DNA from: Lachnospirales bacterium
Lineage (GTDB): Bacteria > Bacillota > Clostridia > Lachnospirales > CAMZNU01
Assembly: GCA_047973385.1 (NCBI GenBank)
Contig: JBKEBX010000024.1
Location: 5 to 64,004, forward strand
DNA: 64,000 nucleotides
Direction: 5' to 3'
In this document: positions 471 through 42,114 of the stretch, in pieces
Layout of the letters: each line of letters opens with the position of its first letter
Numbering within the stretch: the first letter of the stretch is position 1
Translations under genes and position numbers: made by a program
Notes under the pieces: generated by a model
What the model saw: only the letters and a program-made list of their open reading frames with translations
The model's database searches: none
Told to the model about the DNA's origin: nothing

Positions 471-780
471 ATTACAATAATCTTAAGTTCTAGCCTTGTT
501 TTCGAGGCTAGGACTTTAGTATATTATATCATAAAGTAATTTCCAAAGGAAATTACAATATTCTTATGTCGTAGCTGTCTTTTGGTAGCTAGGACTTTAG
601 TATATTATATCATAAAGTAATTTCCAAGGAAATTACAATATTCTTATGTCGTAGCTGTCTTTTGGTAGCTAGGACTTTAGTATATTATATCATAAAGTAA
701 TTTCCAAAGGAAATTACAATAATCTTAATGTGTAGCTGTACTTTATGTAGCTACGCATTTAGTTTATTATACCATAAATA
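471..780. repeat. Tandem array A of the 81-bp double-hairpin repeat (about 4 units)
   Basis: Units start at 471, 552, 632 and 713 (period 80-81 bp). Each unit has the palindrome GTAATTTCC-AAA-GGAAATTAC, a second hairpin (490-511 CTAGCCTTG-TTTT-CGAGGCTAG; 572-591 TAGCTGTC-TTTT-GGTAGCTA), and a minus-strand TGATATAAT (e.g. rc of 523-531). The fourth unit is the variant type seen in array C. Confidence 0.9.
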
Positions 781-854
781 ACTTGACAATAAAACTATTT
801 TAATATATTGTTAATATATAAAAGTAAATAAAACAAAAAGGAGAAATATAATAT

Positions 855-18481: not shown

Positions 18482-19255
18482 TCAACAACTTAAATTAACA
18501 TCTATGACAATGGTATACTTTTCTCCAACTTTATCAACTTTATAATTGGCAATTTCTCTACCTTCATTTAAAAACTCCATAGCCTCATCAAGTGTATCTG
18601 TAAGTAGTGAAATATCTCTAAAATTTCTATGTATACTAAAGTTTTCGTTAAAGTTTTCAACTAACTTATCAAACTCATAAAAACTCATGTTTTTAAATAA
18701 CGCAATTTCTAAAAGTTCAAGTTGTTTTTTCTCATCATCAACTTTTAGTATAACTTTTCCATATTGCTCTGTCAAGTTATTTGTTATTAAAAAATTTTTT
18801 ATTTTGTCTTTTAAAGTTAATAATCTAAGTTTTTCAAAAAGTATATTTTTACTTAAACCCACTTTTTCTGCAAGTTCTTGAACTGTTAAATTTTGCTGTT
18901 TCATAAGCTTAACATAACATTCAGCTTCATCAAAATAGTTTAAATCACATTTTTGAATATTTTCTATAAAAGACAACATAGCTGAATCTTCATCACTACT
19001 ATTTACGATTATTGTTGGAATATATGTAAGCCCTATAAGTTTACATGCTTTAAGGCGTCTTTCTCCAGCTACAAGTTCAAATTTACCATCACATACTCTA
19101 ACAGTTATAGGTTGCAAAATACCGTTTTCTTTTATTGATTTAGCAAGACTATATAAATTATCTTTATCAAATTGCTTTCTTGGTTGGTATTTGTTTGGTA
19201 ATATACTTTCAATTTTCAAACTAACAATTTCTTTTTCAAATTTTAAACTTCCCAT
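18482..19255 (-). CDS. ParB/Noc-family DNA-binding protein (Spo0J paralogue)
   Basis: 257 aa. ParB N-terminal box QPRK.F, the GERRLKA (GERRxRA) motif and an HTH region. It occupies the position next to rsmG where noc sits in Bacillus. It ends with TGA, the only TGA terminator I found in the window. Confidence 0.8.
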   Translation of the reverse strand: MGSLKFEKEIVSLKIESILPNKYQPRKQFDKDNLYSLAKSIKENGILQPITVRVCDGKFELVAGERRLKACKLIGLTYIPTIIVNSSDEDSAMLSFIENIQKCDLNYFDEAECYVKLMKQQNLTVQELAEKVGLSKNILFEKLRLLTLKDKIKNFLITNNLTEQYGKVILKVDDEKKQLELLEIALFKNMSFYEFDKLVENFNENFSIHRNFRDISLLTDTLDEAMEFLNEGREIANYKVDKVGEKYTIVIDVNLSC

Positions 19256-20099: not shown

Positions 20100-20178
20100 A
20101 AAACCTCTATTTCTATACATTTATAGTTAAAAATTTACCATTACCTTTATTGTAGCATAAGATAATTATCCATGATTA

Positions 20179-20433
20179 TTATACCATAAAGTAATTTTCA
20201 TAGAAAATTACAATAATCTTAATGTGTAGCTGTATTTATGTAGCTATGCATTTAGTTTATTATACCTTAAAGTAATTTTCATAGAAAATTACAATAATCT
20301 TAATGTGTAGCTGTATTTATGTAGCTACGCATTTAGTTTATTATACCATAAAGTAATTTTCATAGAAAATTACAATAATCTTAATGTGTAGCTGTATTTA
20401 TGTAGCTACGCATTTAGTTTATTATACCATATA
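20179..20433. repeat. Tandem array C of the 81-bp double-hairpin repeat (3 units plus a partial one; orientation as array A)
   Basis: TTATACC unit starts at 20179, 20260, 20341 and 20422 (period exactly 81). Hairpin 1 variant GTAATTTTC-ATA-GAAAATTAC (e.g. 20191-20211). Hairpin 2 variant GTAGCTGTA-TTTA-TGTAGCTA(C/T). Minus-strand TGGTATAAT boxes (e.g. rc of 20178-20186). Confidence 0.9.
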
Positions 20434-20507
20434 AATAATATTTTTGTATAATAAAACTTGATACTTTTGCGTATATATTGTAAAATAGATATATTACATA
20501 AAGGAAG

Positions 20508-30570: not shown

Positions 30571-31691
30571 AAACCCTCCTTCGTTAGTTTAACAGTTAGT
30601 TACTCAAGTAATTAACTAAATAATATCATAAAAACTAATTGTTGTCAATATCTAAATTTAAGGGAATATCTAAAAACTTGATTTTAAAAAAATTTTAGAT
30701 ATTCCTTTGTAAAGTTTTCCACAGATTTTTTTACAATAATAACTTTTTTTCAAGTAAAATGTTAAAAATTATATAGTAAAATAAAGTTTATGTATTTTTT
30801 GTTAAATTTCTATTAAGATTTTTTGTTAAACTACACTTTTCAACAAAAAATAATCCTTTAAAATCATAGTTATTAACAAAGTTACTAACATTGTGTTAAT
30901 AACTTTGTATTTCTCATATTATAGCCATTTAGTAGAGTTTTAAAAAGATTTGTGTATAAATATTGATTTTTATAAAAAAACCTTTATTATAGCCATTTTT
31001 TCTTGTGATAACTTGTTTATAACTTTTTAATTTAAAAATAAGTTATTATTGTTGTTGATAACTATATTTTAAACATTTTTATTTATATTGATATACCTAA
31101 AATATTAAATATATATTTTTTCAACAAAAAGTTATAAACATCTTTGTTAATATTTTTAATGTTTAAAACTATTAGTTTTTTAGCTATAAAATCATAAAAA
31201 ATCTGATGTTTGTGCATAAAATTCACTTGTTAACATAGTCATTTGAAAGTTTTACACAGGACTTTACCTTATTATGAGTATATTATATATATAAATTGTT
31301 AATAAATATTTTCCACAGGAGTTTTTTTTTTAGATTTTTAAAAATAGCCTGTCTATTAATATATTAATATTTTTTATTTATTTTATATTATTTATATATT
31401 TATTATTAATAATTAATTATAAGATAAAAATATAAATTGGTGGAAGAAATATATAAAAAACTATTTACAATATGGCGAAAAACATTTAAAATATATATAG
31501 AGTTAATTGTAAGAAAATATAATTTCTTGTAATAATTAAATATAGTTAAGTAAATTAATATAAATTATCATAAATTTTTATTGTAATAAAATGTTAAAAA
31601 TTTAATAAAAGACAATATAATTTATGATGTTTTTTTTAATATATATTTTAATAATATTTTTCATTTATAAATTTAAAATAATATTTTAATA
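30571..31691. other. Chromosomal replication origin region (oriC): DnaA-box cluster plus AT-rich unwinding region
   Basis: Forward boxes: TTTTCCACA at 30715-30723 and 31309-31317, TTTTACACA at 31250-31258, TTATAAACA at 31132. Reverse boxes: TGTTAATAA at 30894 and 31297, TGTGTATAA at 30951, TGTTTATAA at 31014, TGTTGATAA at 31054, TGTGCATAA at 31211. The region lies between the minus-strand rpmH block and plus-strand dnaA, where gene orientation switches. Confidence 0.8.
31321..31691. other. Extreme-AT tract, candidate DNA unwinding element
   Basis: About 370 bp almost devoid of G/C (e.g. TATTAATATATTAATATTTTTTATTTATTTTATATTATTTATATATTTATTATTAATAATTAATTATAAG), immediately right of the last TTTTCCACA box and abutting dnaA. 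Confidence 0.55.
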
Positions 31692-32903
31692 TTGTATACT
31701 GAAAAAAACAAAGACAAAGATTTTATAATGCATAGAAAAAAAGATATTGTTTTAGATACAATTAAATCTATAAATCCTGTTATTCTTGATTTTAAGATAA
31801 ATACAGTTTTAGACGATAGTTTAAATGATAAAAATTCAATAAATAATACACAATTTATAGATATTGATAAAGCTAAAAGTATGGCAAACTTGCAACCTAG
31901 ATATACTTTTGAAAATTTTGTAAAAGGTGATTGTAATGATTATGCTTTTAATATTTCAAAAGTTGTAGCAAAAGAACCTGGTCAAATAGATACAAATCCT
32001 TTGTTTTTTTATGGTGGAGTTGGTCTTGGTAAAACCCATCTTATGCAATCTATTGGTAATAGAGTTTTAGAAAATAGTGTTACAAAAAAAGTTTTATATA
32101 CTTCTTTTGATACTTTTTTTAATGAATATACTGATTCACTTAGTTATAAAGATAGTGCTGTTTTTAGACAAAAATATAGTGAACTTAATATTTTACTTAT
32201 TGATGATATACAGTTTATTGCTAAAAAAGAAAAAGCTCAAGATGAACTTTTTCATATATTTGAGTTTTTAAGAAACAGTAATGTACAAATTGTGTTTACA
32301 TCAGATAGACCACCTAAGGAAATCGAAAATCTTACTGATAGACTTTCTTCAAGATTTTCTAACTGTATGATTGATATTACTAAACCTGACCTTGAAACTA
32401 GAATAGCTATTATTAAAAATAAGGCATCTATTAAAAATGTGCATTTTGAAAACGATATAGTTAATTATATCGCTCAAAATATTAATACTAATGTACGTGA
32501 ACTTGAAGCTGCTTTTAATAAAGTTGTCCAATTTGAAAAATTTTCAGGTAAAAAAGTTGATTTAGACATTGTAAAAGAGATTTTAACACCTTATATTCAA
32601 GGTGAAAATAGAAAAGCTATTACTGTTGAATTTATTATTGATGTTACTTCAAAATATTATAATGTTAGTGTTTCTGATATTTTAGGTAAAACAAGAAAGG
32701 CTGATATTGTTTATCCAAGACAAATGGCAATGTATTTATCTAGAAAACTTACTGATAAATCTTTACCACTTATTGGCGAAAAATTTAATCGTGATCATAC
32801 TACTGTTTTATCTTCAATAAATCGTATTGACGAGTATATTAGAAATAAAACTGGAACAACACAAGAAATAACTGACCTTGAAAATAATATTAGAGTAAAT
32901 TAA
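31692..32903 (+). CDS. dnaA: Chromosomal replication initiator protein DnaA (short, atypical N-terminus)
   Basis: PRYTFENFV, Walker A GGVGLGKTHL, Walker B LLIDDIQF, VRELEAAF, and domain IV (YPRQMAMYL...DHTTV). The start is uncertain: TTG 31692 (ORF track) or ATG 31728, neither with a clear SD. Confidence 0.95.
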   Translation: MYTEKNKDKDFIMHRKKDIVLDTIKSINPVILDFKINTVLDDSLNDKNSINNTQFIDIDKAKSMANLQPRYTFENFVKGDCNDYAFNISKVVAKEPGQIDTNPLFFYGGVGLGKTHLMQSIGNRVLENSVTKKVLYTSFDTFFNEYTDSLSYKDSAVFRQKYSELNILLIDDIQFIAKKEKAQDELFHIFEFLRNSNVQIVFTSDRPPKEIENLTDRLSSRFSNCMIDITKPDLETRIAIIKNKASIKNVHFENDIVNYIAQNINTNVRELEAAFNKVVQFEKFSGKKVDLDIVKEILTPYIQGENRKAITVEFIIDVTSKYYNVSVSDILGKTRKADIVYPRQMAMYLSRKLTDKSLPLIGEKFNRDHTTVLSSINRIDEYIRNKTGTTQEITDLENNIRVN

Positions 32904-35558: not shown

Positions 35559-35812
35559 TATGGTATAATATACTAAAGTCCTAGCTACCAAAAGACAGCT
35601 ACGACTTAAGAATATTGTAATTTCCTTTGGAAATTACTTTATGGTATAATAAACTAAAGTCCTAGCTACCAAAAGACAGCTACGACTTAAGAATAGAGTA
35701 ATTTCCAAAGGAAATTACTCTATGGTATAATAAACTAAAGTCTTAGCTACCAAAAGATAGCTACGACTTAAGAATATTGTAATTTCCTTTGGAAATTACT
35801 CTATGGTATAAT
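35559..35812. repeat. Tandem array D of the 81-bp double-hairpin repeat (3 units plus a terminal -10 box), inverted relative to arrays A and C
   Basis: TATGGTATAAT at 35559, 35640, 35721 and 35802 (period exactly 81). Each unit is TGGTATAAT + TAGCTACC-AAAA-GACAGCTA + GTAATTTCC-(TTT/AAA)-GGAAATTAC. The last -10-like box lies 95 bp upstream of the soj GTG. Confidence 0.9.
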
Positions 35813-35906
35813 ATAATTAAATGTTTTTTATTTTTTATAAATGATTTTATCAACTTTAATATTTATAAAAAAAGTTTTAAAGTGAAAATGAAAGGAGTAT
35901 TTCCTT

Positions 35907-36691: not shown

Positions 36692-37576
36692 TTGGCTAGA
36701 AAAAAAGGATTAGGTAGAGGTGTAGGTGCTCTTATACCTGTTGATATTGTGGATGAATTTGATATAAATAGTAATGATAATGGCGAAAAAATTATTAATA
36801 TTGATATTAATTTAGTTGCACCTAACAAAAATCAGCCTCGTAAATTTTTCGATAAAGAACAACTTGAGGAACTTGCTAATTCTATAAAAGAAAAAGGTGT
36901 AATCCAGCCTATTTTAGTTGTTAAAAAAGGCGAAGGTTATATTATTGTTGCAGGTGAAAGACGTTATAGAGCTTCTAAAATCGCAGAACTTAAAAATATT
37001 CCTGCTATTGTTAAAGATTTTTCTGAAGTTGAAATTATGGAAATTGCTTTAATTGAAAACTTACAAAGACAGGATTTAAACGCTGTTGAGGAAGCATTAG
37101 GATATAAAAGATTAAATGATGAATTTTTACTTAGTTTTGATGATATTTCAAAAAGAGTAGGTAGAAGTAAAGGTTCGATTTCAAATTCTTTATCTTTACT
37201 TAAACTAGCTACTAAAGTTCAAGATTTAATTTACATTGGAAAATTAAATGCAAGTCAAGGCAGAATTTTACTTAAAGTAGAAGATGAAAAATTACAATGT
37301 GAGTTAGCAGAAGAAGCAATTGAACGAGATTTATCTGCTCATATGCTTGATGAATTTATTGATATATATTTTATTACTAAAGAAAAAGAATTAGAAAAAA
37401 ATTATAGGAAAAATTATAATGAGTATAGCTCAATAATAAATGAATTTGAAAATGATTTACAAAATTTTTTAGGCTTAAAAGTAAAAATTAATGATAAAAA
37501 TAAAAAAGGTAAGTTAGAAATAGCTTATACAAATCATGATGAATTAGAAAATTTAATAAAAATGCTTAAGAGATAA
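36692..37576 (+). CDS. spo0J: Chromosome partitioning protein ParB/Spo0J
   Basis: 294 aa. MARKKGLGRG...PN.NQPRK.F, GERRYRAS, an HTH and a C-terminal dimerisation region. TTG start 2 nt after the soj stop. Confidence 0.93.
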   Translation: MARKKGLGRGVGALIPVDIVDEFDINSNDNGEKIINIDINLVAPNKNQPRKFFDKEQLEELANSIKEKGVIQPILVVKKGEGYIIVAGERRYRASKIAELKNIPAIVKDFSEVEIMEIALIENLQRQDLNAVEEALGYKRLNDEFLLSFDDISKRVGRSKGSISNSLSLLKLATKVQDLIYIGKLNASQGRILLKVEDEKLQCELAEEAIERDLSAHMLDEFIDIYFITKEKELEKNYRKNYNEYSSIINEFENDLQNFLGLKVKINDKNKKGKLEIAYTNHDELENLIKMLKR

Positions 37577-42053: not shown

Positions 42054-42114
42054 TTTGTAACTCCTTACATTTAAAAATAAAGAGCCGTAAATTTTTCACA
42101 GCTCTTTAAATATA

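Follow-up and report, generated by a model that had tools for sequence, protein, structure and literature searches.

The stretch of DNA analysed here (hereafter the window) covers 64 kb of contig JBKEBX010000024.1, a 27% G+C contig from the short-read metagenome-assembled genome (MAG) of a Lachnospirales bacterium, a gut-type bacterium known only from metagenomes in a lineage without cultured members. The window spans the replication origin region, with dnaA, dnaN and recF on the plus strand and rpmH, rnpA, a YidC-like gene and the positions of mnmE and mnmG (named from their translations and gene order) on the minus strand, and it carries an 81-bp tandem repeat that is the subject of this work. 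Tandem Repeats Finder reported three arrays of period 81 at 471-778, 20176-20439 and 35559-35821, the first with 3.8 copies, and nhmmer and BLAST resolved exactly 11 copies (10 full units and one truncated unit) that form three arrays and one solo copy. These four loci are spread within 36 kb, and no further copy was detected elsewhere in the 64-kb window by BLAST or with an nhmmer profile. Units from the four loci are 83-93% identical to each other, the genes next to the four loci are unrelated as judged by Pfam, and no reading frame is open through the whole unit.

We call the strand on which the non-canonical pairs of the larger stem-loop (hairpin 2) are G.U wobbles the G.U strand, and the opposite strand, which carries the -10 boxes, the promoter strand. 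Array A (471-776; G.U strand plus) lies between an endonuclease IV-like (nfo-like) gene that starts at 433 on the minus strand and mgsA (855, plus strand; both by Pfam), and was divided with Tandem Repeats Finder and nhmmer into a partial unit A0 (471-533) and the units A1 (534-614), A2 (615-694) and A3 (695-776). Array B (20177-20431; G.U strand plus) opens with a leading box followed by B1 (20189-20269), B2 (20270-20350) and B3 (20351-20431), and is placed between rsmG (start 20120, minus strand) and a polysaccharide deacetylase gene (20508, plus strand). Array C (35559-35812; G.U strand minus, boxes on the plus strand) is composed of C3 (35559-35639), C2 (35640-35720), C1 (35721-35801) and a terminal box (35802-35812), with the recF terminator on one side and the start of parA (35907, plus strand) on the other. 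The solo copy S1 (2171-2262; G.U strand minus) consists of one unit (2171-2251) and a degenerate proximal box (2252-2262), and its boxes on the plus strand face the gene of a TrkA_C-domain membrane protein (2306, plus strand).

Read on the G.U strand, as in the preliminary description of this DNA, the unit runs from AAG through hairpin 1 (GTAATTTCC-AAA-GGAAATTAC), CAATATTCTTAA and hairpin 2 to TTTAGTTTATTATACCATA; read on the promoter strand, it runs from an extended -10 box through hairpin 2 with its 14-bp stem and a 12-nt linker to hairpin 1. All units within each array stand head to tail. Arrays B and C and the solo copy start and finish with the last 13 bases of the unit, i.e., in a fixed phase from box to box, and the gene-proximal end of array A is cut off within hairpin 1. 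An independent assembly of the same sample and organism supplied a 2.6-kb Logan contig (SRR30067236_1582) that begins inside C1, breaking in array C; its positions 1-123, from the last unit of the array to parA, are identical to the window, which confirms the junction between array C and parA. Because the repeat thus breaks short-read assemblies, the copy numbers of the arrays in the MAG may be wrong.

Covariation in the two hairpins

The preliminary description had reported compensatory changes in hairpin 2 between two neighbouring units of array A, and we indeed find the sequences that it gave, CTAGCCTTG-TTTT-CGAGGCTAG at 490-511 in its unit 1 (A0) and TAGCTGTC-TTTT-GGTAGCTA at 572-591 in its unit 2 (A1). 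Three stem positions differ on both sides between these units, namely the loop-closing pair (G-C versus C-G), the third pair (T-A versus G.T) and the fourth pair (C-G versus T-A), and all of them pair in both. The stem is longer than had been described, comprising 14 pairs (485-516 in A0; 566-597 in A1), and a C-G pair of A0 is replaced by a G.G mismatch in A1. The TTTT loop had been called invariant; it is the same in A0 and A1, but reads TTTA or CTTTA in a third variant, type II (ATGTGTAGCTGTA-TTTA-TGTAGCTACGCAT), which is found in the unit at 695-776 and in all of array B. Compared with the common variant, type I, three more pairs are changed on both sides in type II.

Hairpin 2 of A0 (485-516, plus strand) has 14 standard pairs closed by a TTTT loop, is the only example of the CTAGCCTTG/CGAGGCTAG variant and folds at -20.6 kcal/mol on the plus strand versus -12.8 kcal/mol on the minus strand. 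Type I is represented by A1 (566-597, plus strand; GTCGTAGCTGTC-TTTT-GGTAGCTAGGAC, with two G.U pairs and one G.G mismatch), by A2 (646-677, plus strand), which is identical to A1, and by four copies on the minus strand: C1 (35738-35769; one G.U pair changed to A-U, and a G.A mismatch), C2 (35657-35688), C3 (35576-35607) and S1 (2188-2219), which holds the sole A.C mismatch seen on the G.U strand. Type II comprises A3 (727-759, plus strand; ATGTGTAGCTGTA-CTTTA-TGTAGCTACGCAT) and the three copies of array B on the plus strand, B1 (20221-20252), with an extra G.U pair where B2 and B3 have G-C, B2 (20302-20333) and B3 (20383-20414). Unit A3 (695-776) as a whole is a mosaic, with a hairpin 1 of the type of arrays A and C and a linker, hairpin 2 and box of the type of array B, suggesting exchange between arrays that lie 19.5 kb apart.

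Across the alignment of all 11 units, changes on both sides affect 6 of the 14 pairs of hairpin 2, and 93.6% of the cells are paired. The covariation score of this structure is 0.249, compared to 0.100 +/- 0.017 in shuffled alignments, none of which reached the observed value in 500 trials, and sliding the structure by 1-3 columns leaves only 32-49% of cells paired. When the eight observed stem substitutions were scattered randomly in a simulation, pairing as good as or better than that observed arose in 1.3e-4 to 2.8e-3 of trials per pair of lineages. At the same time, variability within the unit is highest in the stem columns, of which 15 of 28 are variable, compared to 11 of 46 of the other columns (Fisher p = 0.013). 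None of the ten distinct sequences departs from the U.G pair at the second position from the loop, and both pairs that flank it have changed on both sides. The earlier proposal of a selected structure is therefore strengthened by six independent double-sided compensations with no pair-breaking change, by shuffle and slide controls that fall short of the observed values, and by a stem that is variable yet paired. These observations support a hairpin 2 whose sequence is free to vary and whose pairing is constrained, with pair-by-pair compensation under selection as the simpler account. All 11 copies, and with them the three lineages of hairpin 2, come from this single 64-kb contig of a short-read MAG. 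We rejected a still longer hairpin 2, predicted by folding to form through pairing of the linker with the U-rich tail, because the two variants with substitutions in the columns concerned (C2 and S1) no longer form the pairs.

Hairpin 1 (536-556 in A1) is a perfect 9-bp palindrome, GTAATTTCC-AAA-GGAAATTAC, and overlaps with the -35 region of the predicted promoter in the following unit; its other copies lie at 617-636, 697-717, 20191-20211, 20272-20292, 20353-20373, 35617-35637, 35698-35718, 35779-35799 and 2229-2249. One of its pairs covaries, from C-G to U-A, in array B and S1. In C2 (hairpin 1 at 35698-35718), the loop reads TTT instead of AAA on the G.U strand and the 3' flank has changed from CAATA to CTCTA, which complements TAGAG of the 5' flank exactly; the result is a perfect 13-bp palindrome. 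The five substitutions of C2 are explained by a single template-switch event in which synthesis switched strands.

Strand asymmetry and promoter boxes

On the G.U strand, 93.6% of the cells of hairpin 2 pair, compared to 77.9% on the promoter strand, and the hairpin folds as RNA at -9.2 to -20.6 kcal/mol versus -5.0 to -12.8 kcal/mol. It is more stable by 4-8 kcal/mol on the G.U strand in seven of the eight sequence variants and about equally stable on both strands in the solo copy; with DNA parameters, too, the strand with G.T pairs is the more stable one in seven of eight variants. The asymmetry extends to transcripts of the whole unit (z = -7.4 and -6.1 on the G.U strand versus -4.4 and -3.9 on the other) and to whole arrays (-79.7 versus -62.9 and -101.5 versus -85.0 kcal/mol). 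Cells with G.T outnumber those with A.C by 24 to 1, most of them inherited. A stronger argument about the strand comes from the loop-closing pair, which takes three Watson-Crick states (C-G, A-U and G-C) and stacks on the helix only through two wobbles that are A.C mismatches on the other strand. The preliminary description had taken the wobbles to mark the strand opposite to the -10 boxes as the one on which the structure acts; pairing and stability favour that direction, and the G.U strand is a reasonable but unproven candidate for the strand that uses hairpin 2.

It had further been proposed that the G.U strand runs toward mgsA and the deacetylase gene. The arrays at 471 and 20177 conform to this, but at the other two loci the same strand runs away from the neighbouring gene, so that the statement does not hold in general. 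Both mgsA and the deacetylase gene have promoter-like sites of their own between array and gene (783-811 and 20458-20486, respectively). The site of mgsA (783-811, plus strand; TTGACA-17-TATTGT) follows right after the end of array A and is conserved in relatives without the array.

What had been called -10-like boxes are better than this name suggests. They take the extended -10 form TRTGnTATAAT, which is typical of Firmicutes, with TATG in 13, TATAAT in 13 and both in 12 of the 14 boxes. The free position n is occupied by G in nine boxes, A in three, and T and C in one each, and variation limited to this position is the signature of a constrained, here predicted, promoter. On the minus strand, the boxes lie at 523-533 (TATGATATAAT), 604-614, 684-694, 766-776, 20178-20188, 20259-20269 (a TAAG variant), 20340-20350 and 20421-20431; on the plus strand, TATGGTATAAT at 35802-35812 is closest to parA, and the others are found at 35559-35569, 35640-35650, 35721-35731, 2171-2181 and 2252-2262, the last with a degenerate TATAAC. 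Every box, for instance at 35640-35655 (plus strand), also holds a two-codon mini-ORF (open reading frame) ATG-NTA-TAA with the GGAAA of hairpin 1 lying 9 nt upstream, probably a by-product of the TATGnTATAAT consensus.

The boxes point toward the adjacent start codon at all four loci, with 89 nt (start at 433), 57 nt (20120), 94 nt (35907) and 43 nt (2306) between the gene-proximal -10 and the start codon. The gap between repeat and start codon is only 37-57 nt at three loci and thus leaves little room for another promoter. At array C and the solo copy, just one direction enters a gene, and this is the direction of the promoter strand. Relative to replication, the orientation of the repeat loci is three to one, which is uninformative beyond their co-orientation with genes.

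All boxes except the degenerate one read TATAATA, so that the opposite strand presents TATTAT. Symmetric -10 elements whose two hexamers pair with each other at positions 2 and 6 have been described to drive divergent transcription from starts 18 bp apart (Warman et al.; bioRxiv 10.1101/2020.01.31.928960), and 13 of the 14 boxes have this 18-bp bidirectional configuration. The predicted forward start, 7 nt past TATAAT, coincides with the first paired base of hairpin 2, and the predicted reverse start, likewise 7 nt past its hexamer, lies 2 nt ahead of hairpin 1.

Readings of the repeat unit

The explanation that we tentatively favour, without regarding it as probable, is that the 81-bp repeat is a tandemly amplified, lineage-specific, directional promoter cassette in which hairpin 2 serves as a strand-specific, terminator-like stem for reverse transcripts. 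We infer from the sequence that either strand is transcribed, that hairpin 2 terminates transcription and how the cassette spread. The extended -10 boxes would fire at the adjacent gene, and the symmetric -10 would also start transcription in reverse. The reverse transcript would consist of hairpin 1, the 12-nt linker, a hairpin 2 that is fully paired via its G.U wobbles and then UUUAGUUUAUUAU, and hairpin 2 would stop it ca. 70 nt from its start, short of the promoter or gene next to it. In the forward direction, these wobbles become A.C mismatches, which we propose would leave the stem weak and let transcription proceed to the gene. Toward the gene, the cassette would thus combine a strong promoter with weak stems and, away from it, a weak promoter with a strong stem, made directional through G.U pairs. 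In line with this proposal, a terminator scan of the G.U strand flagged all type II hairpins (A3 and B1 to B3), with 3-4 sites per array as opposed to 0.0-0.1 in shuffled sequences. A control scan of 20 kb gave only one convincing terminator-like hit, at 42078-42108 and 7 nt past the stop codon of a phosphoglucomutase gene, which matches hairpin 2 in shape, stem size and G+C content, with 14 pairs, four of them G-C.

Several observations weigh against this explanation. The type I hairpins were not flagged because their G.G mismatch parts the main stem from the tail, and the U tract that follows hairpin 2 is interrupted, the tail being UUUAGUUUAUUAU. The reverse promoter is weak by consensus, a TATTAT without TG and without any -35 element of at least 4/6 matches at a spacing of 16-18. 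At none of the four loci does an annotated gene lead into hairpin 2 on the G.U strand, so that only non-coding, hypothetical reverse transcripts would end there. The strand bias of the wobbles comes down to about five independent wobble events versus one A.C (one-sided binomial p of about 0.11, not significant alone), and only three independent lineages of hairpin 2 are available, all on one 64-kb MAG contig.

If the repeat is such a directional promoter cassette, it would be a compact, portable unit that places a strong promoter in one direction and a transcription block in the other, with directionality provided by G.U pairs. It would then represent a natural case of a promoter that brings its own insulator and has been copied in front of unrelated housekeeping genes, among them parA-parB and rsmG beside the replication origin, and would show uncultured Firmicutes rewiring expression by promoter amplification. 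More modestly read, the repeat is a new and well-delimited family of structured intergenic repeats with unusually clean covariation from very few copies. Until transcript data or further copies become available, the repeat will be of limited practical use.

An alternative that we consider unlikely starts from the coincidence of the predicted forward start with the first base of the stem. Hairpin 2 could be the 5'-terminal stem-loop of an mRNA leader that is made on the promoter strand from the internal boxes and shields the transcript from decay dependent on its 5' end; the A.C positions would then belong to an enlarged loop. Stabilisation of mRNAs by 5' stem-loops is established for Firmicutes, and the promoter strand alone has both strong promoter signals and the orientation to genes. 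Here, too, the stem retains a fold, at -5 to -12.8 kcal/mol, and the gene-proximal unit of array A, which would be part of every nfo transcript, has the variant that is best paired on the promoter strand, too. However, the loop-closing pair covaries through three states even though two A.C mismatches would separate it from the stem on this strand, where the proportion of paired cells is just 77.9%. Furthermore, no hairpin 2 lies downstream of the box nearest to the gene at array B, array C and the solo copy, so that the main transcript would lack the stem there.

It is rather improbable in our view that the unit belongs to the selfish, mobile or recombinogenic repeats of the repetitive extragenic palindrome (REP), REPIN or MITE (miniature inverted-repeat transposable element) type, with a trans-acting enzyme that recognises the hairpins in single-stranded DNA, where G.T pairs are tolerated, and with the box either incidental or the preferred target. 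Compensatory stem changes are typical of REP-like repeats, and such an origin would fit the dispersal to four loci within 36 kb, the end phase that the solo copy shares with arrays B and C, the lack of arrays at those orthologous sites that were compared in relatives, the greater stability of the G.T strand by DNA parameters in seven of eight variants and the template-switch event in C2. On the other hand, terminal inverted repeats are absent, no transposase or Y1 (RAYT) gene was detected by Pfam among the ORFs of at least 150 aa in the window, hairpins 1 and 2 are unrelated to each other unlike the paired ends of IS200/IS605 elements, and the copies are all head to tail without inverted pairs. 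A near-perfect TRTGnTATAAT in which only n is free likewise points to promoter function.

Each unit might instead be a complete small-RNA gene of ca. 70 nt on the G.U strand, a possibility that we deem quite unlikely. Its RNA would start at the back of the symmetric -10 and consist of hairpin 1, a single-stranded CAAUAUUCUUAA and hairpin 2 with the U tail as its terminator, and the arrays would supply multiple copies of RNAs perfectly antisense to the forward leaders of the nfo-like gene, of rsmG with its noc-like neighbour and of parA-parB. Housekeeping and chromosome-segregation genes close to the origin would then be controlled by a reiterated sense/antisense switch.

The C2 event also raises the question of whether structure is selected at all, since the matched changes could be a by-product of palindrome maintenance at the DNA level, with intrastrand or interstrand template switching copying one arm from the other as seen in hairpin 1 of C2. 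We hold this to be very unlikely for hairpin 2. Switching creates perfect Watson-Crick arms and flips the loop if it crosses it, but the TTTT loop of hairpin 2 was never flipped, the invariant U.G between two double-changed pairs would have been erased by one copying event, and the type II stem base (TGTG versus CGCA) keeps its wobble; besides, six separate events would be required. Least likely of all is that the palindromes are bound as double strands by dimeric proteins, as operators or as sites of the ParB/Noc type, and that the arrays are clusters of regulatory or centromere-like sites: hairpin 1 is indeed a perfect palindrome centred near -30 of each promoter with half-sites (ATTTCC/GGAAAT) equal to those of the Noc-binding site (NBS; consensus TATTTCCC-GGGAAATA; PMC7383237), two arrays flank the rsmG-noc-like and parA-parB operons, and canonical parS and NBS are absent from the origin-proximal window, but the symmetric changes of hairpin 2 affect both half-sites including central positions, unlike in a protein operator, the centre of hairpin 1 is 1 bp longer than that of NBS or parS, and a relative (L143; see below) has the same unusual ParB recognition residues without any array.

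An identification of hairpin 1 as parS or NBS was rejected because of its longer centre and the lack of a canonical match in the window, where NBS gave no match at up to three mismatches and parS (TGTTTCAC-GTGAAACA; like NBS a 16-bp palindrome) no match with fewer than two mismatches. Hairpin 1 of A2 (ATTTCCAAGGAAAT) does have the canonical spacing. The window encodes two ParB-family proteins, at 18482-19255 (minus strand) and 36692-37576 (plus strand), and by manual alignment both paralogues carry a lysine at the position of R173 in ParB and Q173 in Noc. The occurrence of the same residues in L143, which lacks the arrays, makes any link between ParB and the arrays a weak one.

Relatives, known repeat families and other features of the window

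The repeat is absent from the orthologous loci of the nearest relatives (MgsA 79-87% or ParA 78-80% identical) at the two sites that were compared, between nfo and mgsA and upstream of parA; the MgsA of the window itself is identical to MFV0440935.1. In three relatives, TATGATATAAT is found at a similar distance upstream of parA, and the relative L001 has TGTTATAAT upstream of the nfo-like gene. In L143 (GCA_040777385.1; 9325-10765), mgsA is directly followed by parA-parB and a PGI gene. The corresponding part of the window (1326-35906) holds 34.5 kb including oriC between mgsA and parA and is bounded by the solo copy and array C in the same orientation, so that the repeat copies may mark a rearrangement breakpoint relative to L143.

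Searches of wider scope recovered no homologue of the repeat. At the gathering threshold of Rfam only tRNAs pass, and with a permissive threshold the best hits below it were RsaA (22 bits; threshold 50) and CRISPR-DR63 (19 bits; threshold 37). Plasmids and phages yielded no homologue of array A by blastn. Scans of 185,579 species genomes for exact patterns gave no match for a first pattern and 14 matches for a second one, confined to 20-24 nt around the pattern and coming from unrelated taxa. Among metagenomes at JGI, the first pattern had no match and the second matched at least 120 stretches, and among the matches listed none extends past hairpin 1 by BLAST or nhmmer. Three patterns searched in IMG/VR had 0, 0 and 2 chance matches.

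We regard the element as a new family of a known kind, that of promoter- or stem-loop-bearing intergenic repeats such as putative mobile promoters, Correia, ERIC, REP and BOX elements. It differs from them in that a whole promoter-and-hairpin unit is reiterated head to tail, that the same direct box stands at both ends and that, so far as could be seen, only one uncultured lineage has it. The defining property of putative mobile promoters is that they stand in front of unrelated genes of the same genome with an identity of 80% or more across 50 nt or more (Matus-Garcia, Nijveen and van Passel 2012; PMC3575422). The 81-bp repeat resembles them as a similar, non-coding and promoter-bearing sequence in front of unrelated genes and, at 83-93% identity, falls within this definition, but it forms head-to-tail arrays of 3-4 full units, has two covarying stem-loops and was without homologue in the other genomes searched. 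The Correia elements of Neisseria and ERIC are likewise small intergenic repeats with outward promoters and RNA hairpins that affect neighbouring transcripts; Correia elements, however, have terminal inverted repeats and a TA target duplication, disperse singly and are ca. 100-150 bp long, whereas the 81-bp unit is tandem and lacks inverted ends. REP, BIME and REPIN-RAYT systems share short, imperfect, clustered intergenic palindromes with compensated stems but are alternating or inverted, occur in hundreds of copies and are accompanied by a Y1 transposase; the 81-bp repeat is direct, comes without such a gene in the window (no Y1 (RAYT) domain by Pfam among ORFs of at least 150 aa), shows neither inverted pairs nor alternating orientation within its arrays and includes a consensus promoter in the unit. 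Pneumococcal BOX is a modular intergenic repeat of a Firmicute found next to genes, with a tandemly reiterated boxB and a stable predicted fold, but it has no sequence similarity to the 81-bp family and repeats only the middle one of three modules, whereas the whole unit is repeated here.

The likeness to symmetric bidirectional -10 promoters lies in the TATAATA/TATTAT geometry with positions 2 and 6 paired; the published work on them (bioRxiv 10.1101/2020.01.31.928960) concerns single promoters, whereas here a predicted box is reiterated with stem-loops starting at both predicted starts. With intrinsic terminators, hairpin 2 shares a 14-bp stem of moderate G+C content, a tetraloop, a U-rich stretch thereafter, a sequence that is free as long as it pairs and a directionality that G.U pairs can confer, but its U tract is interrupted and no annotated gene ends there. 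ToxI-type units of type III toxin-antitoxin (TA) systems are ca. 36 nt long, have one common upstream promoter and precede an endoribonuclease toxin gene. The arrays of the window resemble such ToxI-like arrays (PMC3401426) in being tandem series of short, structured repeats that are non-coding and lie directly upstream of a Firmicute gene, but differ from them in having 81-nt units with a box in each, followed by nfo-like, rsmG, parA and membrane protein genes.

A type III TA array was rejected on these grounds, given that the downstream genes encode AP_endonuc_2, GidB, ParA and TrkA_C-domain proteins and no endoribonuclease toxin. The arrays are not CRISPR arrays either, because the entire 81-nt period is repeated without unique spacers and no cas-like domains were found by Pfam among the ORFs of at least 150 aa in the window. 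A MITE was discarded because both ends are the same 13-nt box in direct orientation instead of terminal inverted repeats, and ends of the IS200/IS605 type were discarded because hairpins 1 and 2 are unrelated to each other. A target-site duplication might be seen in the flanking boxes, but these belong to the repeated unit, and they differ at 3 of 13 positions in the solo copy.

Two further repetitive features lie within the window. Beside the solo copy, a direct duplication of ca. 200 bp (1312-1515 and 1815-1971; 82-97% identity in blocks) flanks a tRNA-Met gene at 1624-1696 and is unrelated to the 81-bp repeat. Directly upstream of dnaA (start at 31692), the region 31354-31692 is densely filled with short, A+T-rich tandem repeats that presumably represent the unwinding region of oriC.

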